From an uncultured Clostridia bacterium (GTDB taxonomy: Bacteria; Bacillota; Clostridia; Christensenellales; UBA1242), in the NCBI GenBank assembly GCA_944349925.1, contig CALVNT010000008.1:2114-66113 (forward strand): DNA of 64,000 nucleotides, in the 5' to 3' direction. The translations under genes were made by a program, and so were the position numbers. A model generated the notes under the pieces. It did not search any database. It was not told where the DNA came from and saw only the letters and a list, made by a program, of their open reading frames with translations. This document shows positions 38,590-49,472 of the stretch, one piece after another (position 1 is the stretch's first letter; every line of letters begins with the position of its first letter).

Positions 38590-39840
38590 CTAAATTCTTT
38601 TTATATCCCCGCCAAGTGCAACCAATTTTTCTTCCAATTTGAAATACCCCCTATCAATCAAGCCAATATTGTCAACAGTCGTATAGCCTTCGCTAAAAAG
38701 CCCAGCGAGTACAAGCGCTGCCCCTCCGCGCAAATCGGTTGCCCATACATCTGCCCCATACAATTTGCGTTTGCCTCTAATTATGCAAATAGATGACTTG
38801 AATTTTATGTCTGCCCCCATTTTTAACAGTTGACCAACATAATTAAACCGAGATTCAAAAACATTTTCAAAAATCAAACTACACCCATTACAAACACAGC
38901 CAAGCGTAGCCATTTGCGGTTGCAAATCAGTTGGAAAACCGGGATAAACCGCAGTTTCAATATCCCCAAAACTTTCTAAAACTGAAGGCGCAATTATTCT
39001 TATGCCTTTTTTTTCTTTTAAAACTTTACAACCACAGACCTCTAATTTGTCAATTAACGCACTATTATGCTCATAAATTGCGTTTTTGAGATAAATATCA
39101 CCATTACATACAGCACCCGCGATTAAAAATGTACCGGCTTCAATTCTGTCGGGAATAGCTTGATGCTCACAACCATGCAAATTTTTAACACCTTCAACTA
39201 AGATAATATCGCTACCTGCACCATCAATTTTTGCTCCACATTTATTTAAGAAGCAAGCAAGGTCAACAATTTCAGGTTCTTTTGCGGCATTATAAATAAC
39301 AGTTCTGCCTTCAAAAAGCGACGCAAACATCAAAAGATTTTCTGTCGCTCCAACACTAGGAAATTTGAGCATAATTTCGCTTTTGTTTCTTTTTAGCTTT
39401 TGACCATAAATATAACCATTTTTTTCAACAATCTTGCACCCAAGTTCTTTTAACCCGTTTAAATGTATGTCTATAGGTCTTAACCCTATATCGCACCCAC
39501 CGGGATAAGCAACTTTTGCACAACCCAACCTAGAGAGAATTGGCCCTAAGGTAAAAATTGAAGAGCGCACAACACTTGCAAGCTCGTTTGAAATTTCGCT
39601 TTTATCAATTTGCGAGCAGTCCACCAAAAGGTCGTCGCCCTGCCATTTAACAAAACCACCTAAGTTTAGCAAAATGTCGCACATGGCACAAACATCTTTA
39701 TATTTTGGCACATTTTTTAAAAGCACCTGCCCATTTACCAAAATACAACCTGCTAATATTGGCAAAAGCGAATTTTTTGCACAGTCAATTTTTATTTCGC
39801 CTTTGAGGCAGTTACCACCATTTATAAAAAACTTATCCAT
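38590..39840 (-). CDS. murA: UDP-N-acetylglucosamine 1-carboxyvinyltransferase
   Basis: AKNSLLP, PGGCDIGLRPID, SVGATEN, YPGFPTDLQ, TDLRGGAAL. Confidence 0.95.
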   Translation of the reverse strand: MDKFFINGGNCLKGEIKIDCAKNSLLPILAGCILVNGQVLLKNVPKYKDVCAMCDILLNLGGFVKWQGDDLLVDCSQIDKSEISNELASVVRSSIFTLGPILSRLGCAKVAYPGGCDIGLRPIDIHLNGLKELGCKIVEKNGYIYGQKLKRNKSEIMLKFPSVGATENLLMFASLFEGRTVIYNAAKEPEIVDLACFLNKCGAKIDGAGSDIILVEGVKNLHGCEHQAIPDRIEAGTFLIAGAVCNGDIYLKNAIYEHNSALIDKLEVCGCKVLKEKKGIRIIAPSVLESFGDIETAVYPGFPTDLQPQMATLGCVCNGCSLIFENVFESRFNYVGQLLKMGADIKFKSSICIIRGKRKLYGADVWATDLRGGAALVLAGLFSEGYTTVDNIGLIDRGYFKLEEKLVALGGDIKRI

Positions 39841-40017
39841 ATATGTTTATATGATAAATTGAATAAAATTGATAAATTAAATAAAATAAAAATCATAAAA
39901 ATAACTAGCCATATTAAACGATAAAAAAATAAACAAAATAAAAAAGGAAGATTTTCCTTTTTCTTCCTTTTTTTATTTATATTTTAAAACAGCATTAATC
40001 AAAAACAATTTTTCTTA

Positions 40018-42159
40018 TTATGAATTTATAATGCTCAAACCAGTGTAGAATTTATAGTTTGTAGATGTGTCTCCAACCTTTTTGATAACCCTATAAGTTA
40101 TCTCTAGATAGTCACAGCCATCACTTCCCATAAATTTGTTTGCATCAAGTTGACCTGAAAGATAAGTGTTGCCACTTGCAATTTGTTCTTCTGTTGGCTC
40201 TAAAATCTCATAATAATCTTTAACTGCTGTATTACCTTGAAATGTTATTGGTCTTTTGGAAACAAAAGGGTTTCCTCTATAGTTGTTCTCTCCTACATCA
40301 GTTTTCAATATTCCATTACCTATATCTACATTAAAAGGTCCAACAATCAAATCTTTTTTGCTATCTCCTAAAATTGGTTCGTCAAACCCAAACATCGCAC
40401 TTTGGCTAAATGAAATACCTGTATCTCTTGATAATTTATCTAAATCACTATCACCAAATGGATCAGTAAGTTTTCCGTCAGGCAAAATAACCTTTTTTGT
40501 ATCTACAACAGTTTTTTCTCCTGTTTCATGGTCAAAGAAATTTAACCCAACTTCAATTTCAAGATAACGACTTGCGTCAAAAGTATTACCCGTCGCGGTT
40601 TGATAACCGTCTAAATCAGCATCATATTGAAAAGCAATGACAAGCGCATCAATAGAAACTTCTTCTTTAAACATAAGCACTGCACTTTGATACTCAAGCG
40701 GTCTAATTGCTCTTGCACCAGCACCTGTAGTAAAGTCTTCGTAATAAGGAAAAGGTTCGTCGTCTAAGTTAAAACTGAAAGACTCACCATAATATTCCAT
40801 GATTTCTGATGCAAGATATCGTTCATCAACTTCAACACTTCCACCTTCGCCACTACCAATAGAAACCTGACTGCACACCTTGTCGACAATAACTTTAACT
40901 GTACTTGCATATGCTCTGCCAACATCTTTCTTAGTTTGACTTGCAGTTTTAATGTTGGTATTTAAAAACTGTTTATCATTGTCAGAAAGATTTACACCTG
41001 CTTTTGTTAATTGATTTATTGCATCGTCTGCACTTACAACTACATAAGTCTTGCCATTGTAAACAATTTCAGTTGCCCCGCTATATTCTACAACCTCGTC
41101 ATTTGACATCGCTTTTTGCCCAATAACATTGTCTAGTATCCATTGTGTAATTTTGTCCTTGTTTCTCTCTGCAATACCAACATAAGAGCCAATTTTATTA
41201 AAAACTTCTTTAATATCATCTAGTGCATCAGTTGGAGTTTTTGCAATTTGTTGACCATTGCTTGTTTCATATATCACAACTTGATAATATTTCCCGTCCG
41301 AATAATTTGGAGTTACAACCACCTGCCCCGGTGTCAAATCAAGACTGTAGCAATAAATAATATATTCAAGAGTTTTTACAAAATCAGAGTAAAAATCAGT
41401 TTGAGTCTCAAAAACATTATTAGTCCCTAAATAAACATCAAGATAATTGCTAGAAAGTCCTGAATAATACCTTTCAAAATCTGCAACTACATTATTATAA
41501 CTCCTTTTAAAAATAGCTTTAACATAATTATTTAAATTATTTTCGACAGATAGTCCATCTTCTGAATAGTACAAATATGCCAATAAATTGCTTTCATCTC
41601 TATCAAAACTCCAATTCCAAGCATTATCAAGATTTGCTGAAAGCATAGTATATTCGCTATTTATATCATTCGAGTTGTTTGTCCAAACGCCATCGTAAGA
41701 AAGAGAATTTGTAACTTGTGCGTACTCTTCAACTTGATATCTTATAGAATCATATAAATATGGCAAGGTAACATTGTTTAAATCGAAATATTTGTATATA
41801 ACATCGTTTTCTTGATACTCTAATTCTTTATTTGCGTCATTAGAAATTCCATATATTAAATTAAGTTTTCTTAATATATACCAGGCATATTGACCATAAT
41901 AATCGTTTTGTTGACTTTCTGTGCCACCAGAATTTCCACTAAAGTCGTAGTTGTCTGGTCTATAAAGCACTTTTGTTCCATAAAGTGGCACAACTTGCCC
42001 TTTGTCTAATTCTTCATAATATTCATCTTCTGAAATTTCGCCATTTTCAAACTTTTCCCATAAGTCATCAAAAAAGTTGAACTCAGTGCAACCAGTCCCT
42101 AAAAAACAAAAAGAAATCACCAGCAAAACACTAAAAATTTTTGCAAACAACTTTTTCAT
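40018..42159 (-). CDS. Hypothetical lipoprotein
   Basis: Signal peptide ending in lipobox FLGTG-C; 713 aa, acidic. Confidence 0.7.
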   Translation of the reverse strand: MKKLFAKIFSVLLVISFCFLGTGCTEFNFFDDLWEKFENGEISEDEYYEELDKGQVVPLYGTKVLYRPDNYDFSGNSGGTESQQNDYYGQYAWYILRKLNLIYGISNDANKELEYQENDVIYKYFDLNNVTLPYLYDSIRYQVEEYAQVTNSLSYDGVWTNNSNDINSEYTMLSANLDNAWNWSFDRDESNLLAYLYYSEDGLSVENNLNNYVKAIFKRSYNNVVADFERYYSGLSSNYLDVYLGTNNVFETQTDFYSDFVKTLEYIIYCYSLDLTPGQVVVTPNYSDGKYYQVVIYETSNGQQIAKTPTDALDDIKEVFNKIGSYVGIAERNKDKITQWILDNVIGQKAMSNDEVVEYSGATEIVYNGKTYVVVSADDAINQLTKAGVNLSDNDKQFLNTNIKTASQTKKDVGRAYASTVKVIVDKVCSQVSIGSGEGGSVEVDERYLASEIMEYYGESFSFNLDDEPFPYYEDFTTGAGARAIRPLEYQSAVLMFKEEVSIDALVIAFQYDADLDGYQTATGNTFDASRYLEIEVGLNFFDHETGEKTVVDTKKVILPDGKLTDPFGDSDLDKLSRDTGISFSQSAMFGFDEPILGDSKKDLIVGPFNVDIGNGILKTDVGENNYRGNPFVSKRPITFQGNTAVKDYYEILEPTEEQIASGNTYLSGQLDANKFMGSDGCDYLEITYRVIKKVGDTSTNYKFYTGLSIINS

Positions 42160-42205
42160 ACTTTTATTTTACCCTTTTTTTCAACAAAAATCAAGTTTAT
42201 ATAAC

Positions 42206-42230
42206 AAAAAATTGGCTTGCGCCAATTTTA
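42206..42230 (-). terminator. Intrinsic terminator
   Basis: AAAAATTGGC-TTGC-GCCAATTTTT. Confidence 0.6.
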
Positions 42231-42231
42231 T

Positions 42232-44118
42232 TTAAAATTTTTCAGTTTCATTCAATTTGACAGTATAAGTTTGTGTGGCATCAGTCGGCAAACTTATTTC
42301 AATGTCTTCATTTCTTTTTTCAATAAAAGAATATTCTTCTATTATTTCACACCTATAATTACCTGTTAGTTTTGCTTTTTCAATAATTGTATCTACATTG
42401 TTGTCATTATGTTCATTAACAAACCTAAAACTTAAATGCTTGTATGTATTATTTTTTATATTAACAAATTTGATTGCTATCGTTAAAATATTTTTATTAT
42501 TTTCCGAATCACCACCTTGTAATAACATTACAAAATTATAATCGCCTTCTTGTACTAGCCCTTGCTCAACTGCAAGTGGCATAACTTTATCAAAAATATT
42601 TACTTGCTCTTCTGTTAAACACTTCTGTGGTTCAAGACCTTTAATGTTTCTATTATACCCAGCATTTGCACTAAATTGAAAAAAAATTGTCAAATCTATA
42701 GAATAATTTGTTCCATCTTTTTCAAACTGCACAACATTTTCGTCAATTTCACCATTTGTTTTTGCTTGCATTTGAGAAATGTTTATCGGCTCACTAAAAG
42801 TAAAAGTTGCACCTTGTAACCGAACCTTGTTATCATCACCCAGCATGCCTTTTCTAACGCCTAAAATTTGCACGCCATTGATTTTGTCGCCTTCTACATC
42901 AAAAGCCCATTTGAAAATCTCAATCTTCTTTGAACTTGAAGTTAAATCTTCCTTAGACATACTATTTCCAAACATATCTTTTATTCGAGCATCAGTAAGC
43001 AAAGTATCCTGCAAAATTTCAATGATTTTTTCTTTAACGCCGTCAATTTCAAAAACTTCATTCCAGTTTTCAAAATTTATTGTTTTTTCGACTTCTTTTT
43101 CTATCACATTTACAACATATTCTTTTGTTTTTTCGCCCGAAACAAGAATATTGTATCCCTCATACTTTGAAAAATCATTTGTCGAACTAGAAAATTTTAC
43201 ACTTTCATTATTAAATTGATTTTGTGCTATTTCCTTGTCAAAAGTTCCATTTGCCATCAAATTTCCTTCAAAAACAAATTCGCAATTTTCAATTGTGTAG
43301 TTGTCTATAGCATAAGACAAGTTGACCTTTGTGCGGTCGTTTGCCTTGTCATAAGTTATGTCATTGACTGTTGGATAAAAAACTGTTTTATTGCTGTCAA
43401 TAATATTTCCAAGCAAAAGGTTAAAAATTTCAAGTTCACTTTCGCTTATAGAAGATTTTACTTGAAGTTCTTCCACACTTGTGTTTTCAAAAGCAGACAA
43501 TATTTTTTGGTCAACTTTGTTTGTATCAACAACATACAAATCGCCAAGCGCGTCAGTATAATAAAATTTTCCTTCCAAACTTACCGTTTGTTCTTCGCCG
43601 TCTTGATAAAAAGTCAAATTGTCATCATTTAATGCAAAAGTCCCGTTTTCATATTTTTTCGCATCAAAATCTTCTGCCGACAAAGAAATCTCAGTGCTTT
43701 CTATTTTAAGCCCGTTTTTATCAACAACGACTGCAATTTTTCCGCTTCCATCATTATTTTCACTGCTTATTGAAACTATGCTATCTTCTCCGTAAGTGGC
43801 CTTAACTGCATCTTCAATTTTTTCGCTCAAAACAAAGTTGGTTCCAAGCAAAGAATATATTTCTGAAAGAGAAGTCACATCATTTACATCAACTTCTACA
43901 TGTTCAACAATAGGAGGTTTTTCATTTACGACGCACCCCATAGCAGTCACTGCAACACCAGCAGAAGCAATTCCAATTCCTGCAACTTTCCAACCTTTAG
44001 ATTTAAATTTATCTTTAAATTCTTTCAAATTTATACATAAAAATGCTTTAAACTCTTCCCACTTTGAAGGCCTGATAACTTCTCCGTTTTTAATATTACT
44101 CTTTTGTCTTTTCGCCAT
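42232..44118 (-). CDS. Hypothetical membrane-anchored protein/lipoprotein
   Basis: Basic N-terminus, hydrophobic stretch ending VTAMG-C; 628 aa. Confidence 0.65.
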   Translation of the reverse strand: MAKRQKSNIKNGEVIRPSKWEEFKAFLCINLKEFKDKFKSKGWKVAGIGIASAGVAVTAMGCVVNEKPPIVEHVEVDVNDVTSLSEIYSLLGTNFVLSEKIEDAVKATYGEDSIVSISSENNDGSGKIAVVVDKNGLKIESTEISLSAEDFDAKKYENGTFALNDDNLTFYQDGEEQTVSLEGKFYYTDALGDLYVVDTNKVDQKILSAFENTSVEELQVKSSISESELEIFNLLLGNIIDSNKTVFYPTVNDITYDKANDRTKVNLSYAIDNYTIENCEFVFEGNLMANGTFDKEIAQNQFNNESVKFSSSTNDFSKYEGYNILVSGEKTKEYVVNVIEKEVEKTINFENWNEVFEIDGVKEKIIEILQDTLLTDARIKDMFGNSMSKEDLTSSSKKIEIFKWAFDVEGDKINGVQILGVRKGMLGDDNKVRLQGATFTFSEPINISQMQAKTNGEIDENVVQFEKDGTNYSIDLTIFFQFSANAGYNRNIKGLEPQKCLTEEQVNIFDKVMPLAVEQGLVQEGDYNFVMLLQGGDSENNKNILTIAIKFVNIKNNTYKHLSFRFVNEHNDNNVDTIIEKAKLTGNYRCEIIEEYSFIEKRNEDIEISLPTDATQTYTVKLNETEKF

Positions 44119-44305
44119 ACTCTTCTTCCTCTATAAAATTTTCTATTTATATTTTATCACAAACGATTTCAAATTTCAATACTTTTTTTCAAAAACGGCA
44201 AAACTTTAAAAGCTCTAAAAATTTTTTACTTTCAATTACAAAAAATGTCGAATTTTAATAATTTTAAAGTTATGGCTTTTAAAAAAGAGATACAATTATC
44301 TCTCG

Positions 44306-44599
44306 TTAAATTAAAAAAGGATCTTTCTTTAAGGCCTCTTCAACATCTCCATATTTTTTCGTTATATTCTCAAGTTCTTTTGTCAAACTTTCTACAGGCA
44401 AAACAAATATATTTGGATTAACTAAAAGTAAAGATGATATATCTTCTTGTGGATAACCATAATGAATTAAAGCGATCATATCTTCAGTAAACTCTTCTAA
44501 TGTAATGTTTTCAAACATAGGTGCCATCATTTCTATGCTTTTGATTTCATCATCAGTTAAATCTAATTTTAAAAGAAAATGTTTTAACTCTTTTTGCAT
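44306..44599 (-). CDS. Small protein with degenerate mTERF-like helical repeats
   Basis: FLLKLDLTDDEIKSIEMMAP and LIHYGYPQEDISSLLLVNPNIF; ATG at 44599, 10 nt after the upstream stop. Confidence 0.55.
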   Translation of the reverse strand: MQKELKHFLLKLDLTDDEIKSIEMMAPMFENITLEEFTEDMIALIHYGYPQEDISSLLLVNPNIFVLPVESLTKELENITKKYGDVEEALKKDPFLI

Positions 44600-44609
44600 A
44601 CCTTTCCCC

Positions 44610-46229
44610 TTATTTATCCAAACCAAGTTCTTCTTCGGATAATTTTAAATCTAAGCCATCAATTTTTTCTGCCACCTTTTTATATTCCGCATTTATTTGT
44701 TTTACAGCTTCTTTTGTAAATGGATATCTTTCCATTAAAGTTTTACTATCAATATTATATTTTTGAAAAAAGTTTTTTTCGCTGATAAGTAGATCCATTG
44801 CCGTAATTTTTAATTTCCCTATTTCTCTTATTCCACATAGTCTAGCCCAAGTTTTTTTATGGCTTGTCATTTGCCAACAAGGTCTATCTAAAAAAGAATC
44901 GGAACCATATGCAATATACAAAATCATATATCTTACTTTAAGGCTCTTCTCTGGTGCTGTTAATATATCTGGATGCTCAACTACAACACTATTATCAATT
45001 TTCAATTTTTTGATTGATTTATGTTTATTGATTATACTATCTTTATCCAATCCTAACAATGTTGGCATTTTGATAAGCATCTTACAGAATTCTTTCTTTG
45101 TTAATTTAAATTCTTCCATGTAAAATGTTTTTTTCGCTTGAACGCTATCTTTATCCAGTCCTATCAATGTTGGCATTTTAATAAACATCTTACAAAATTC
45201 TTCATTTGTTAAGTCAAATTCTTCCATGTAAAATGTTTTTTTTGCTTGAACGCTTTCTTTATCCAATCCCAACAATGCTGGCATTTTAATGAAAATCTTA
45301 CAAAATTCTTCCTTTGTTAATTTAAATTCTTTCATATAAAATGATTTTTTCGCTTGTATGTTATCTTCACTATAACATAATAATGCTGGCAAGACCTTAA
45401 CTATCTTATCAAATTCTTCCTTTGTTAATTTAAATTCTTGGATATAAAACGATTTTTTATCTTTGACACTTTCTTTACTTAAACTTAACAATGCTGGCAA
45501 TTTTATAACCATCTTGCTAAATTCTTCCTTTGTTAATTTAAACTCTTGGATATAAAATGATTTTTTCGCTTGTATTTTATCTTCACTATAACATAATAAT
45601 GCTGGCAAGACCTTAACTATCTTATCAAATTCTTGCTTTGTTAATTTAAACTCTTGGATATAAAATGATTTTTTATCTTGAACACTTTCTTTACTTAAAC
45701 TTAACAATGCTGGCATTTTGATAAGCATCTTCCCAAATTCTTCCTTTGTTAAGCCAAATTCTTCCATGCAAAATGCTTCTTTCGCTTGTATATTATCTTC
45801 ACTATAACATAATAATGCTGGCAAGACCTTAACCATCTTATCAAATTCTTCCTTTGTTAAGCCAAATTCTTCCATGTAAAATGCTTCTTTCGCTTGAACG
45901 CTATCTTTATCAAATCCTAACAATGATGGCAAAATTTTAACCATCTTGCAAAATTCTGCTTTTGTTAAATTAAATTCTTCCATATAAAATGATATTTTTG
46001 CTCGAACACCATCTTCATTGTAACCCAACAATGCTGGGAAATTTACGATCATCTTCCCAAATTCTTCCTTTGTTAAATTAAATTCTTCCATATAAAATTT
46101 AATTTTTTCTTCAACTTTATTTTGATCTAAATATGAAATTCGTGAAAAGGTATCTTCTTTGCCTTCTAAATCTTTATCAATAAAACCAAATTTTTCTTTT
46201 AATATTTCTTTTATATCTTGTTTTGCCAT
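44610..46229 (-). CDS. Tandem 36-aa repeat protein, mTERF-like alpha-solenoid
   Basis: Ten repeats of F(Y)xxEFxLTKEEFxK(M/I)xxx(L/M)PALLxxxx(D/E)xxxxKxx; AGGAG RBS; own promoter. Confidence 0.75.
   Translation of the reverse strand: MAKQDIKEILKEKFGFIDKDLEGKEDTFSRISYLDQNKVEEKIKFYMEEFNLTKEEFGKMIVNFPALLGYNEDGVRAKISFYMEEFNLTKAEFCKMVKILPSLLGFDKDSVQAKEAFYMEEFGLTKEEFDKMVKVLPALLCYSEDNIQAKEAFCMEEFGLTKEEFGKMLIKMPALLSLSKESVQDKKSFYIQEFKLTKQEFDKIVKVLPALLCYSEDKIQAKKSFYIQEFKLTKEEFSKMVIKLPALLSLSKESVKDKKSFYIQEFKLTKEEFDKIVKVLPALLCYSEDNIQAKKSFYMKEFKLTKEEFCKIFIKMPALLGLDKESVQAKKTFYMEEFDLTNEEFCKMFIKMPTLIGLDKDSVQAKKTFYMEEFKLTKKEFCKMLIKMPTLLGLDKDSIINKHKSIKKLKIDNSVVVEHPDILTAPEKSLKVRYMILYIAYGSDSFLDRPCWQMTSHKKTWARLCGIREIGKLKITAMDLLISEKNFFQKYNIDSKTLMERYPFTKEAVKQINAEYKKVAEKIDGLDLKLSEEELGLDK
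45018..46097 (-). repeat. Ten tandem 108-bp coding repeats
   Basis: Recurring AAATTCTTCCTTTGTTAA...AATGCTGGCA units at a 108-bp period. Confidence 0.92.
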
Positions 46230-46247
46230 GATTTCTCCTATAAAAAT

Positions 46248-46276
46248 AGGATAACATATAATTTAATATAAGTCAA
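46248..46276 (-). promoter_or_regulatory. SigA-type promoter of the repeat-protein operon
   Basis: TTGACT-17bp-TATCCT with extended -10 TG. Confidence 0.55.
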
Positions 46277-46306
46277 TATACATCAATATTTGAATTGAAT
46301 AGAAAA

Positions 46307-46431
46307 TTATCTATTTTTACTTTGTCTTAGCACATTTAGGCAAATTCCAACTCCTGCCATAAACACAGTTACCGAAGTTCCTCCGCTTGAAATAAATGGA
46401 AGAGGCAAACCTGTTGGAGGAATTGAACATG
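46307..46431 (-). repeat. Displaced copy of the ftsW 3' end (att-like), encodes ...SIPPTGLPLPFISSGGTSVTVFMAGVGICLNVLRQSKNR*
   Basis: 46344-46417 is identical over 74 bp to 48397-48470; flanking differences are synonymous up to RQS. Confidence 0.92.
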
Positions 46432-46761
46432 TTAAAATAAGTTCGTGCACTAGTAATAAAATCTAACGGATTATAAGTTTTTATCTAAAATTCATAAACT
46501 ACTTTGTTACATAATTTTAATCATAAGAATTTGCATTTAGTCTTTTATTCAAAAATTCTATAAAAGATTTATTTTTGTTATCGTTGGGTTGTAAATTTCA
46601 AACAAATAAAATTTTGTTTTCAAAACTATTTCTCGTATTACTATGTATGAAAATTTATCGTTTGCCAACAAAAAGCCTTTATTTACTAACAAGTGTACAT
46701 TTATTCAAATATAAAGTAAAAACTGTATTATTAATTTATTCTTACAAGTGAGTTAAAATTG

Positions 46762-47382
46762 TTATATGGTTAACCCTTTTGAAATTTCTATCATTTCATT
46801 ATTGTGTTCTTTCATTGTTTGTTTTTTCCCTAAATCTAACCCTCTATAATATGATATGTAGTCGTTGCTTCCACCAACTTGATAATTTAGGTGGATATAA
46901 TTACAATCATAATTATTTTCTATTTTTTTAAAAGTTGGGTCAACTAAAATCCATTTTCCATTAAAATAGCACTCACAAAAAGAATGCCCCTTGCAAACAG
47001 TTATATCTTTATTATTTTTAACATCTTCAACAAATGATTTTTCAGCTGTATGCAAAAGTGTTGCAGGTATGCCAAGTTGTCTAGCAAAAGTAACAAACAA
47101 TGTCGCCCAATCTGTACACCCCGTAGCCACGCCACTCTTCCAAATTTCTTTTGCAGTTCTTTGAAATTTATTTTTTATAGAAAATTCTTCACTATTTGAA
47201 CTTGTTACATGTGCATGTACCCATCTCATTAAACTTTCAATGTCATTCGCGTGAGAATGCGTATTTTTGTCATACAATATTTTATTTTTTACTATTTCAC
47301 CACTCAAAAATGGTTCGGTTAAAACTCCTGCTTGTAGATAAGTTTGAATATCATTTATATTTAGTTTATTTAATTCCTTCAT
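46762..47382 (-). CDS. Transglutaminase-like (Cys-His-Asp) domain protein
   Basis: TGCTDWA..F...ARQLGIP, GHSFCECY..GKWILVDPT. Confidence 0.85.
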   Translation of the reverse strand: MKELNKLNINDIQTYLQAGVLTEPFLSGEIVKNKILYDKNTHSHANDIESLMRWVHAHVTSSNSEEFSIKNKFQRTAKEIWKSGVATGCTDWATLFVTFARQLGIPATLLHTAEKSFVEDVKNNKDITVCKGHSFCECYFNGKWILVDPTFKKIENNYDCNYIHLNYQVGGSNDYISYYRGLDLGKKQTMKEHNNEMIEISKGLTI

Positions 47383-47399
47383 ATTTATTTAATTTCTCC

Positions 47400-47560
47400 A
47401 TATATGACAATTTTACCATATTTCCAACATTTCCGCAATTGTTTTTACTTTGTTTTGCAACATACAAACAAATACCAAGCCAAGCCATAAAAACAGTAAC
47501 TGAAGTCCCACCACTTGAAATGACAGGAAGAGAACGTAATTTTGGTAATATTGAACCTAT
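47400..47560 (-). repeat. Second, diverged copy of the ftsW 3' end
   Basis: Translates as GSILPKLRSLPVISSGGTSVTVFMAWLGICLYVAKQSK..., collinear with FtsW GSIPPTGLPLPFISSGGTSVTVFMAGVGICLNVLRQS. Confidence 0.85.
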
Positions 47561-47683
47561 TTAAATCAATTACTTCGCTTACAAAAAATAGTTAAAATTA
47601 TATTTCTTACCATTTTATAATTAAAATTTAATTTTATTTTACTTTCGAATTAATTTTTTTTACAAATAATTGATTATTTATTT

Positions 47684-48229
47684 CTATACTTTGTTCCATT
47701 CTTCTTTTAAAAGTCCGTAACAATACAAATCTACAAATTTATTGTTTTTAATTCTTGCCTTTCTTTCAATGCCTTCTTGAACAAATCCAAGTTTGCTTGC
47801 CAACTTTTTACTTGCATCATTTTTATTCCAAATAACAACTTTTATTCTATTCATTTTAACAATATTAAAAATGTAATTTATTAAACACTTCACTGCTTCA
47901 TAGGCAAACCCTTGATTTTGGAATTTAGGGCTTAATCCCCAACCAATTTCACACCATTTATGTTTAATATTCCAATCTTCTATCGACACACTTCCTATAA
48001 GTTTATTGTTATAAAAAATTCCCCATAACAAATTAGGTTCATCTTTATTGTCATAATTCTTAATAATTGAATTTAATGATATTTCATATTCTTGTTTTGT
48101 TTTAACATCGGTTGGTAAAAATTTATGATATTCTCTGTTGCTTTTCCATTCTACATAATCATTTAAATTCTTTTTTGTTATTTTTTTTAAAACCAATCTT
48201 TCAGTTTTTAGAGTTTTCACTTGTATCAT
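47684..48229 (-). CDS. GNAT (RimJ/RimL-type) acetyltransferase
   Basis: LKTERLVLK, EIGWGL...FQNQGFA.EA, N.AS.KLA.KLGF..EG..R. Confidence 0.9.
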   Translation of the reverse strand: MIQVKTLKTERLVLKKITKKNLNDYVEWKSNREYHKFLPTDVKTKQEYEISLNSIIKNYDNKDEPNLLWGIFYNNKLIGSVSIEDWNIKHKWCEIGWGLSPKFQNQGFAYEAVKCLINYIFNIVKMNRIKVVIWNKNDASKKLASKLGFVQEGIERKARIKNNKFVDLYCYGLLKEEWNKV

Positions 48230-48311
48230 ATATAAACCATTTACAATATTGTAACAAAAAATATAAAAATTGTAAACAAGAAATTTGCCTTTTAAGACTT
48301 TTTGTCTTAAT

Positions 48312-49472
48312 TTATATTTTTTGTTTTATTTTCTTATTGACTATTTTTACTTTTTTGTAATCTTGTCCTTGACTTTGTCTTAAAACATTTAAACATATTC
48401 CAACTCCTGCCATAAACACAGTTACCGAAGTTCCTCCGCTTGAAATAAATGGAAGAGGCAAACCTGTTGGCGGAATTGAACCTGTAACAACTGCTATATT
48501 TAATAATGTTTGAACGCCTATGATAAACGCCACACCACTTACTAGCATGGCACCAAAGCGGTCTTTTGCATTTAATGCTATTTTTATAAGATTGTAAATA
48601 AGTGCCACAAAAACAAACATGAGCATACATAAACCAAAGAAACCTATTTCTTCTCCAATTATAGATAAAATAAAATCAGATTCTGCAAATGGCAAAAAAA
48701 GATATTTTTGTCTTGAATTAAAGAGTCCAACACCGAATAGTCCACCACTTCCTAGCCCATAAAGAGATTGTATAAGTTGAAAACCTTCCCCTTGTGGTGA
48801 CGCCCAAGGATCAATAAATGCCATAAGTCTTTTTAGTCTATAAGGCTCAAGGACTACAAGCAAAGGGACAACTGCTCCCGCTGGGATTGAAAACATAAGA
48901 GTGTGCTTTTTGCTCATACCACCAATTATCAACATGAAAAGTGTAACAAAAGCAATGCACATAGTTACGCTCATGCTTGGCTCTAACATTGTTAAAACGC
49001 AAATACTACCCCCTGCAATTAAGACTGGCAAAAGACCTTTAAATGTTTTTACTTTGTCATGGTTATCCGACATATAGCCAGCAATAAAAATGATGAGAGC
49101 AAACTTCGCAATTTCAGAAGGTTGAATAGAAATTCCTAAAATCGAAATCCATCGTTTCGCGCCATAACTTTCCATGCCAAGACCGGGCACAAAAACCAAA
49201 ACAAGCAAAACGATAGCAATTATCAATATCCATAGCTTGTATTTTTTTAGTATATGATAATCAACAAAACTAAAAAAAATCATAGCAACTATGCCAAGCA
49301 CAACTCCGAAAATTTGTTTAAAAAGAAAAAAGTATTGGTTGCCATAATGATACTGCGCGCTATAAAAACTAGCGCTGTAAACCATGATGCAACCAAAAAT
49401 TGTCAGTGCAAGCACAAGAAATATAATTTTAAAAATGTCTCTATTGCATTTCGATTTTATCGTAAACACCAA
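48312..49472 (-). CDS. ftsW: SEDS protein FtsW/SpoVE
   Basis: GCIMVYSAS, GAKRWI, QPSEIAK, DFILSIIGEEIG, P.TG.PLPFIS.GG; follows murD. Confidence 0.93.
   Translation of the reverse strand: MVFTIKSKCNRDIFKIIFLVLALTIFGCIMVYSASFYSAQYHYGNQYFFLFKQIFGVVLGIVAMIFFSFVDYHILKKYKLWILIIAIVLLVLVFVPGLGMESYGAKRWISILGISIQPSEIAKFALIIFIAGYMSDNHDKVKTFKGLLPVLIAGGSICVLTMLEPSMSVTMCIAFVTLFMLIIGGMSKKHTLMFSIPAGAVVPLLVVLEPYRLKRLMAFIDPWASPQGEGFQLIQSLYGLGSGGLFGVGLFNSRQKYLFLPFAESDFILSIIGEEIGFFGLCMLMFVFVALIYNLIKIALNAKDRFGAMLVSGVAFIIGVQTLLNIAVVTGSIPPTGLPLPFISSGGTSVTVFMAGVGICLNVLRQSQGQDYKKVKIVNKKIKQKI

Follow-up and report, generated by a model that had tools for sequence, protein, structure and literature searches.

A two-gene unit on the minus strand of a 64,000-nucleotide stretch of DNA from an uncultured Clostridia bacterium (GenBank assembly GCA_944349925.1, contig CALVNT010000008.1, positions 2,114 to 66,113; hereafter the window) encodes a tandem-repeat protein of 539 residues and, directly downstream, a 97-residue protein of the same fold. 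The large protein is very probably a member of the pTERFs, prokaryotic tandem mTERF-like repeat proteins defined in 2024 in Nucleic Acids Research (PMC11417379). On balance, the pair is best read as a sequence-specific, pTERF-type DNA-binding solenoid that works with, and is probably gated by, an acidic mini-mTERF. This reading draws on the fold, the family, the anatomy of the repeats, the conservation of the partner and the distribution of the genes, on the DNA binding of relatives, and on a predicted heterodimer that would occupy the DNA groove and from which a cellular role is suggested.

The mTERF family and fold, which had been proposed for the pair in a preliminary description made from the sequence, are borne out by profile and by model. 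The Pfam mTERF profile (PF02536) matches the large protein in four stretches with 189.6 bits (E = 8.3e-56; cut-off 23.1 bits), and nothing besides mTERF rises above cut-off for the pair. When a profile of the large protein and ten relatives is compared with the sequences of the Protein Data Bank (PDB), MTERF3 is retrieved with E = 2.7e-13 and MTERF1 with about E = 1e-10. The AlphaFold2 model, built on 52 family sequences, has a predicted local distance difference test (pLDDT) of 93.4 and a predicted template modelling score (pTM) of 0.80. It contains three helices per unit, of about 14, 10 and 5 residues, which run unbroken into the C-terminal 135 residues; in the model the ten units and the C-terminal domain form one continuous superhelix. 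With this model Foldseek returns only mTERF structures from the PDB at ranks 1–17, namely MTERF1 with DNA, MTERF3, MTERF4 and the mitoribosomal protein mS93; the match to MTERF3 has a TM-score (TMt) of 0.67 and a root-mean-square deviation (rmsd) of 4.0. The solenoid of three-helix motifs known from the solved structures of MTERF1, MTERF3 and MTERF4 is present in the models of both proteins. Known mTERFs, among them the mitochondrial transcription terminators of animals and plants, are eukaryotic and targeted to organelles, whereas the gene described here is bacterial and has ftsW and murA on either side of it. That trait concerns the distribution of the family, not its fold.

Human MTERF1 (PDB 3mva, 3n6s and mutants), a mitochondrial transcription terminator solved in complex with DNA, shares the fold with high scores (Foldseek E = 3e-7 to 6e-6, probability 1.00), and its Pro-anchored motif aligns unit for unit. 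However, the two are 14–16% identical, and the motifs of MTERF1 are uneven in length and are not tandem copies, whereas the bacterial protein has ten exact 36-residue units, another C-terminal domain and a separate partner protein. This C-terminal domain marks the bacterial family: it is found in 62 of the 156 proteins recovered and is shared by all bacterial-type matches identified. Among the best 150 of 1456 representatives found at E <= 0.001 in an exhaustive protein search, the matches without it are long (about 400–2000 residues) and 21–30% identical, and the five of these that were scanned contain Pfam mTERF only. No catalytic domain was found in either protein with Pfam or NCBIfam (NCBIfam gave sub-threshold noise only), in agreement with the preliminary description.

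The array is as regular as had been reported. A P-x-L-[LI] motif recurs ten times (residues 65, 101, ... 389) at a spacing of exactly 36 residues, that is, 108 bp, and the unit reads F-Y-x-x-E-F-x-L-T-K-x-E-F-x-K-x-x-x-x-x-P-x-L-L-... The residues that follow P.LL in units 1–10 are GYN, GFD, CYS, SLS, CYS, SLS, CYS, GLD, GLD and GLD; VKVL is paired with CYS, while IK(M/L) is paired with SLS and GLD. The term 'near-perfect', applied earlier to these repeats, overstates their likeness: the units are 66–97% identical to one another in DNA, and only 11 of 36 protein positions are invariant. Tandem Repeats Finder gives 9.8 copies of a 108-bp period (45036–46098, 78% matches); a period of 216 bp fits better, at 82%. 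An origin of units 3–7 by duplication in two-unit steps, first proposed from their alternation, is supported because units 3, 5 and 7 (89–97% identical; units 5 and 7, 97%) and units 4 and 6 (85%) resemble one another in DNA. When codons are tallied, if crudely, for all 45 pairs of units, non-synonymous differences outnumber synonymous ones (630 versus 147), and eight scaffold codons are the same in all ten units; the scaffold is thus kept the same even in its DNA, whereas certain positions are free, or under pressure, to change.

Repeat number varies among relatives, and its comparison across homologues, one of the checks first suggested, gave 0–11 units over 80 distinct family sequences, the ten units described here being the second highest number. 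Repeat content turns over fast: P0001, the closest relative, shares 41 of the 44 residues ahead of the array and 118 of the 135 residues behind it, but its array has 3 units in place of ten.

The family assignment rests on the published description of pTERFs, not on an alignment with their sequences, and parts of PMC11417379 are the source for what is said of pTERFs here. These proteins are described there as having 3–11 three-helix units and as coming from metagenome-assembled genomes (MAGs). Most of the MAGs belong to Bacillota, and the first pTERF was found in a 'Clostridia bacterium' of the ruminant gut; the paper lists 46 homologues (its Supplementary Table S11). The likeness is close: in both cases the sources are MAGs of gut Bacillota or 'Clostridia bacterium', the units are tandem, not interspersed, are annotated as mTERF and have three helices, no other domain is present, and relatives vary in the arrangement of repeats. 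Ten units lie within the published range, and for 10 of 11 related loci the record titles name Clostridia or Christensenellales; titles include uncultured Clostridia bacterium, uncultured Christensenella sp. and Candidatus Onthoplasma sp. (placed by NCBI in Christensenellales). The system is very probably not undescribed, as had been thought: its kind was published in 2024 together with the idea of 'potential reprogrammability'. Literature searches found PMC11417379 as the sole source on bacterial mTERF-like proteins, and a plant paper of 2026 (PMC12977773) still states, in the part consulted, that mTERF proteins are absent from prokaryotes. In the parts of PMC11417379 drawn on, bacterial mTERF-like proteins are treated as candidate tools and their biology is left open. 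Section 53 of that paper makes no mention of the partner, the conserved C-terminal domain as a predicted docking site, the genomic context or the patchy distribution.

The same source provides the experimental backing for the earlier suggestion of nucleic-acid binding. pTERF1 recognises ACTNNNAGTC (Kd 1.87 nM), as shown by systematic evolution of ligands by exponential enrichment (SELEX), electrophoretic mobility-shift assay (EMSA), bio-layer interferometry (BLI) and a green fluorescent protein (GFP) reporter. The motif has 10 bp, with inverted ACT/AGT halves around an unspecified 3-bp centre, and its half-palindromic form suggests putative homodimerisation. pTERF2 enriches a different motif, and both proteins bind specific double-stranded DNA (PMC11417379). 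By analogy with these relatives, the large protein is likely to bind DNA.

An alternative is that the pair belongs with MTERF3 and MTERF4 as an RNA-binding or ribosome-assembly factor, MTERF3 and MTERF4 being proteins that act on rRNA and recruit partners; DNA binding in vitro would then be incidental. For the large protein and the partner alike, human MTERF3 (PDB 3m66) is the top match, by profile as well as by TM-score, and MTERF4 and mS93 are also among the matches. MTERF4 works as a heterodimer with NSUN4 (4fp9, 4fzv, 7o9k; for the first two, according to their titles), so an mTERF solenoid can function in this way, and in one related locus (L018) a gene for an S-adenosylmethionine (SAM) methyltransferase lies just upstream. 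MTERF3 and MTERF4 differ from the pair, however, in acting in mitoribosome biogenesis, and the partner of MTERF4 is a methyltransferase rather than a mini-mTERF. The methyltransferase neighbour was seen in one of nine loci with ORFs (open reading frames) listed, selected neighbours having been scanned. NSUN4 binds the C-terminal end of MTERF4, while the partner described here is predicted to lie along the groove face. A core ribosome factor would not be expected to be as patchy as this gene, which is present in 28 of 150 other genomes of the genus and broken in several of them, and the pTERF relatives bind specific double-stranded DNA with nanomolar Kd in four kinds of assay (PMC11417379). A ribosomal role is accordingly held to be quite improbable, and DNA is preferred as the ligand.

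The variable residues of the units lie, as had been predicted, on the face that contacts DNA in MTERF1, a placement supported by sequence alignment. When wild-type and R162A/F243A/Y288A chains of MTERF1 are included in the profile alignment, these DNA-stacking residues can be placed on the unit: R162 falls at unit position 19, two before the Pro, F243 at position 22, one after it, and Y288 near position 30, past a two-residue insertion. Differences between the ten units concentrate at positions 17–20, 22, 25–27 and 30, around the invariant Pro; across 62 ungapped family units the most variable positions are 14 and 19, position 19 having the second-highest entropy. The units hold other residues at the positions equivalent to R162, F243 and Y288, and for this reason base flipping cannot be assumed. 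The groove-lining positions 17–20, 22, 25–27 and 30 would most likely set the specificity for DNA; the pattern of variation fits such a role, with no code shown.

The preliminary description went further and compared the repeats with the recognition codes of TALE and PPR proteins. Under such a code each 36-residue unit would read one nucleotide, or a fixed short step, and shuffling of units would rewrite the target. Several features are of the kind that a code would produce: the variable positions take discrete recurring states on the DNA-contact face of MTERF1, most changes from unit to unit are non-synonymous although the scaffold is identical in DNA, unit number differs between close relatives (10 versus 3 in P0001), and pTERF1 and pTERF2 have distinct motifs, with reprogrammability raised as a potential by their authors (PMC11417379). 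TALEs and TALE-like proteins (AvrBs3; the STAR proteins of PMC11417379) are likewise bacterial, with near-identical tandem units of about 33–36 residues, a few hypervariable positions and variable repeat number. Their fold is nevertheless unrelated, and no TALE occurs among the 53 Foldseek matches. In place of the TALE fold with its repeat-variable di-residue there are three mTERF helices per unit, with variation spread over about ten unit positions, no evidence of one-repeat-one-base reading, and no type III secretion signal or activation domain seen. In MTERF1 itself about eight motifs span roughly 20 bp, with a few arginines, base flipping and no known per-repeat code. No correlation of repeats with bases is known, and the partner is predicted to lie over four of the ten units. 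Moreover, the 10-bp pTERF1 motif ACTNNNAGTC, with its inverted halves, is unlike a co-linear read-out by six or more units (PMC11417379). A per-repeat code is considered improbable; specificity set by the groove-facing positions is the preferred reading.

The 97-residue gene had been noted before as lying 10 nt downstream and carrying repeats of the same type, and both points stand. It is a real ORF with about 2.5 motifs; its ATG is at 44599, 10 nt past the TAA of the large gene, with a GGGGAAAGG ribosome-binding site ahead of it. On its own the protein scores under the cut-off of Pfam mTERF (17.7 bits, E = 0.0018), but its profile retrieves MTERF3 from the PDB sequences with E = 1.1e-6 (E = 1e-6 to 6e-6 over MTERF3 and MTERF1). 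Its model has a pLDDT of 96.2, and Foldseek ranks 1–15 are all mTERF, the best being MTERF3 (TMq 0.76, rmsd 2.4). The partner is strongly acidic, with a net charge of -11 and an isoelectric point (pI) of 4.41. All 11 partner sequences share this property (net charges from -6 to -13, pI 4.05–4.62), and 10 of 11 large proteins are mildly basic (pI 8.3–9.3).

The two genes also travel together. The partner lies directly downstream of the large gene in all 11 loci from other species (L012–L022), as well as in loci L004 and L009; in L004 the stop and start of the two genes overlap. Among 150 other genomes of the genus the partner occurs in 14 and the large gene in 28; 13 of the 14 partner-bearing genomes have both, adjacent wherever they are on one contig. 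The conclusion that the 97-residue gene encodes a true partner of the same fold is thus supported.

Co-folding of the two proteins with predict_complex, which had been proposed as a check, gives an interaction prediction score from aligned errors (ipSAE) of 0.73 (0.74, 0.71 and 0.73 in separate runs), the best of three controls scoring 0.00. The score mark is reached by 58 of 80 solved complexes and by 2 of 110 mismatched pairs, counts that apply here only roughly because own alignments were used for the pair. The three runs share at least 95% of contacts, and the pLDDT of the partner is at least 87. We know of no solved complex of this type, so that a score owed to memorisation by the model seems unlikely; the score is still a prediction and not a measurement. 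On the large protein the predicted contacts involve positions 15, 18–20 and 22 of units 7–10, the face that carries the stacking residues in MTERF1, and C-terminal residues 421–429, 450–459 and 482–486 (P.ILTAP, MTSHKKTWA and SEKN), which include the invariant T455, S456, K459 and E484. On the partner they involve the invariant or near-invariant residues P50, E52, D53, L57, E87 and K91 (G-Y-P-x-E-D..L). Because so small a protein is predicted to touch seven successive motifs, it would have to lie inside the curve of the solenoid.

As modelled, a real heterodimer of the 539- and 97-residue proteins is fairly probable. The partner accompanies the subfamily closest to the window's protein and probably fills part of the DNA groove, either as a mask or as a subunit that shapes it, with the C-terminal domain as the predicted docking site. 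That it actually masks the groove is a more tentative, somewhat doubtful, reading of the same model.

The following mechanism is proposed. The large protein, an mTERF-fold solenoid of the pTERF family, would bind specific double-stranded DNA along its concave face. The co-translated acidic mini-mTERF would dock on the groove face of units 7–10 and on the most conserved C-terminal motifs, and would there either cover part of the surface that binds DNA, in the manner of an anti-factor or DNA mimic, or change the shape of that surface. The pair would be a regulator or roadblock bound to specific DNA sequences, with the partner tuning its activity. It would be carried as non-essential accessory cargo, with a quickly changing repeat number, in a variable slot between ftsW and murA.

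Several observations weigh against this reading. The best matches in sequence and structure are to MTERF3, which is active in ribosome assembly as well as on DNA. The Pro and Leu positions of the mTERF motif were not observed in pTERF1 according to the description in PMC11417379, whereas the units described here, compared with that description, plainly have the pattern, with an invariant Pro and L23/L24. Binding in vitro does not require a partner, since pTERF1 bound DNA on its own (PMC11417379), and 15 of the 28 pTERF-bearing genomes of the genus lack the partner at E <= 1e-5, the large gene being more divergent there. Since the partner-less copies in loci L005 and L006 keep a similar C-terminal motif (by eye), the partner alone does not account for it. 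In the window the pTERF1 motif occurs twice against an expectation of 3.65 and thus shows no enrichment. Finally, the predicted complex depends on a model score from own alignments, and the 'concave face' is deduced from the list of predicted contacts together with the MTERF1 alignment.

In a broader form the proposal would make pTERFs in general two-component switches, in which a dedicated acidic mini-mTERF, serving as a built-in DNA mimic or anti-factor, fills the DNA groove at the last repeats and at the C-terminal domain. The pair would be a fast-evolving module that moves horizontally and clamps specific sites on the chromosome, such as sites within or close to operons for the cell wall and division, and it would be freed or armed by loss of the partner. 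Taken whole, this generalisation is unlikely. If it were true, the published specificities, measured without partner, would describe the unmasked state only, and the regulatory principle would be one not known for any mTERF. Independently of this generalisation, the locus makes bacterial mTERF biology testable, and those who engineer pTERFs as programmable binders need to know of the partner.

The features of the locus are collected in Table 1.

Table 1. Features of the mTERF pair and its surroundings. Positions are those of the window, except for the amidase genes, which are numbered within the related locus named.
Feature	Position	Strand	Basis or remark
Large mTERF-fold tandem-repeat protein gene	44610..46229	(-)	539 aa + stop; ORF, Pfam, AlphaFold2, Foldseek
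N-terminal region, residues 1-44, before array	46098..46229	(-)	helical in model; 41/44 residues as in P0001
Array of ten 36-aa (108-bp) mTERF-type units, residues 45-404, three helices per unit	45018..46097	(-)	
Conserved non-repetitive C-terminal domain, residues 405-539	44613..45017	(-)	..P.ILTAP..LK.RY.. MTSHKKTWARL ..EK.F..
Acidic mini-mTERF partner gene, 97 aa, about 2.5 motifs	44306..44599	(-)	ORF; conserved adjacency
Hairpin AGAGATA/TATCTCT, loop of 4, then T-run	44279..44310	(-)	inverted repeat; likely intrinsic terminator of two-gene unit
Ribosome-binding site AGGAG, 5 nt before large-gene ATG	46235..46239	(-)	from sequence
Candidate promoter-like site TTGACT-17-TATCCT, TG ahead of second hexamer	46248..46276	(-)	9/12 matches
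ftsW 3'-end remnant just upstream of pair	46316..46437	(-)	92% identical to real end 48369-48490; tblastn, alignment
N-acetylmuramoyl-L-alanine amidase gene, L012	3187-3876	(-)	
N-acetylmuramoyl-L-alanine amidase gene, L014	3145-3843	(-)	
N-acetylmuramoyl-L-alanine amidase gene, L016	3184-3909	(-)	
N-acetylmuramoyl-L-alanine amidase gene, L022	3217-3906	(-)	

The pair had been credited with its own promoter. A site with 9 of 12 matches does stand ahead of the large gene, but such sites are abundant in this AT-rich region (33 found versus 18.5 +/- 4.0 in shuffles), and a promoter for the two-gene unit is plausible only. The hairpin behind the partner gene was not listed by the terminator scan; by our own count its stem has too few G–C pairs for the rule of that scan. 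Apart from this hairpin, no striking palindromes were seen in the flanking intergenic DNA. As regards expression, no RNA run was listed among the 22 runs with the sequence.

The genome assembly, 90% complete, comprises about 0.91 Mb in 40 contigs and has a G+C content of about 30%. On the minus strand the order is ddl, two Mur ligases, mraY, a murD-like gene, ftsW, a GNAT acetyltransferase, a transglutaminase-like gene, the pair, two genes for large proteins, murA, ftsA and ftsZ. The ftsW–murA interval (38590–49472) is a variable slot within a division and cell-wall cluster. Its length is 2.0–2.7 kb in four genomes without the pair (G006, G031, G130 and G304); in the two with the pair it is 8.1 kb (G011) and 8.5 kb (the genome described here). 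In loci L004, L015, L017 and L018, too, the pair comes after ftsW, and in L015 and L018 it comes before murA. Three copies of the 3' end of ftsW, of about 120 bases, are present: beside the real end there are remnants at 47444–47565 (70% identical) and immediately upstream of the pair. The three copies are followed, on the minus strand, by the acetyltransferase gene, the transglutaminase-like gene and the mTERF pair, respectively. On this sequence pattern, the slot looks as if cargo had been inserted repeatedly behind ftsW, with about 120 bases duplicated each time; no integrase gene was found near the ftsW-end copies. In another branch (L012, L014, L016 and L022) the pair is head to head with a gene for an Amidase_3 amidase (E = 1e-39 to 2e-47). 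The recurring cell-wall neighbourhood is suggestive, but it may merely reflect where cargo lands.

The distribution of the family is narrow. Pfam mTERF is found in none of 380 genomes in other genera of the order; within the genus it occurs in 4 of 15 and 7 of 36 genomes in two draws. Copies of the large gene with one to four internal stops and tandem paralogues occur among contigs G512:C4, G456:C1, G451:C35, G471:C10, G027:C11, G520:C5 and G524:C14, two open frames of the large gene standing side by side in G520 and G524. Because of the patchy distribution, the broken copies, the variable slot and the ftsW remnants, the pair appears to be dispensable and mobile on an evolutionary scale. Among the genomes sampled it is thus dispensable, patchy cargo with fast repeat turnover in one genus of small-genome gut Clostridia, and this narrow distribution bears on the direction in which mTERFs were transferred between bacteria and eukaryotes.

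These features have also been weighed as signs of a conflict module, similar to a toxin–antitoxin or defence system, in which the solenoid would clamp DNA as a roadblock to replication or transcription and the acidic protein would neutralise it until a trigger takes that protein away. The tight coupling of the genes (10 nt here, overlapping in L004), the small acidic partner predicted on the groove face, the patchy distribution with pseudogenes and tandem paralogues, and the slot marked by remnant ftsW ends would all suit such a module. However, PADLOC gives a single sub-threshold match (E = 7.6e-5, 19.9 bits, no stretch passing), PHROGs gives only weak matches to families of unknown function, and no integrase, phage or plasmid genes were seen beside the pair in the loci examined. 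A conflict module is very improbable, and accessory cargo with a regulatory role on DNA remains the preferred description.

A secreted effector, acquired from a eukaryote and acting on organelles of a host or protist, was another early suggestion. mTERFs are otherwise eukaryotic organellar proteins; the family is confined to one genus among 401 sampled genomes of the order; and the bacteria live in animal guts, the runs with the sequence being labelled chicken gut metagenome, including run X1, which matches it with 0 differences. Against this, neither protein has an evident signal peptide by eye, no predictor having been run, and no secretion-system search was made; the bacterial family has a partner and a C-terminal domain of its own, the genome measures no more than about 0.9 Mb, and the genes are chromosomal accessory cargo. 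The suggestion is unsupported and held to be barely credible.

An array of this kind might also be a product of short-read assembly, with its repeats expanded or collapsed. Units 5 and 7 are 97% identical, and in the Logan contigs of four runs the array is covered in pieces, none of which spans it. A contig of run X3 skips one 108-base unit (45527–45636), with 39 letters that fit either side, and a contig of run X4, from a related strain with 7 other differences per piece, reduces 270 bases to 54 (45572–45843), a net loss of two units (216 bases). These joints may be strain-level variants in repeat number, or artefacts or repeat paths of contigs built from short words; Logan contigs are short and break at repeats, which makes such joints weak evidence. 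On the other side, the longest exact repeat within the array is 58 nt, a length exceeded by usual reads and assembler words. All 30 bins are covered in X1 without a difference, and the pieces from X3 are identical to the window. The frame is intact over 539 residues, the model is confident throughout, and independent genomes carry arrays of 8–9 units. An artefact is highly unlikely; judged from these sequence comparisons, the array is regarded as real and its unit number as probably ten.

Some further observations concern the related loci. Locus L017 is titled 'Eggerthellaceae bacterium', yet its partner is identical to that of L004, which comes from G011, a member of this Clostridia genus, and its ftsW has the same identity; the label looks wrong. 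In L006/L011 (G017:C39) a divergent member of 401 residues without a partner lies beside a UvrD/PcrA-like helicase gene, and the large gene on its other side resembles, by eye, what we take to be the sporulation protein SpoIVA. The DNA there looks richer in G+C, again by eye, than the rest of the genus, and the contig may not belong to G017.

The two large ORFs downstream of the pair in the window encode 628 residues (42232–44118, minus strand) and 713 residues (40018–42159, minus strand). Nothing above the Pfam cut-off and no PADLOC or PHROGs match was found for either. The 713-residue protein has a lipoprotein-like start (MKKLF...LGTGC) and the 628-residue protein an N-terminal hydrophobic stretch, and both may be surface proteins.

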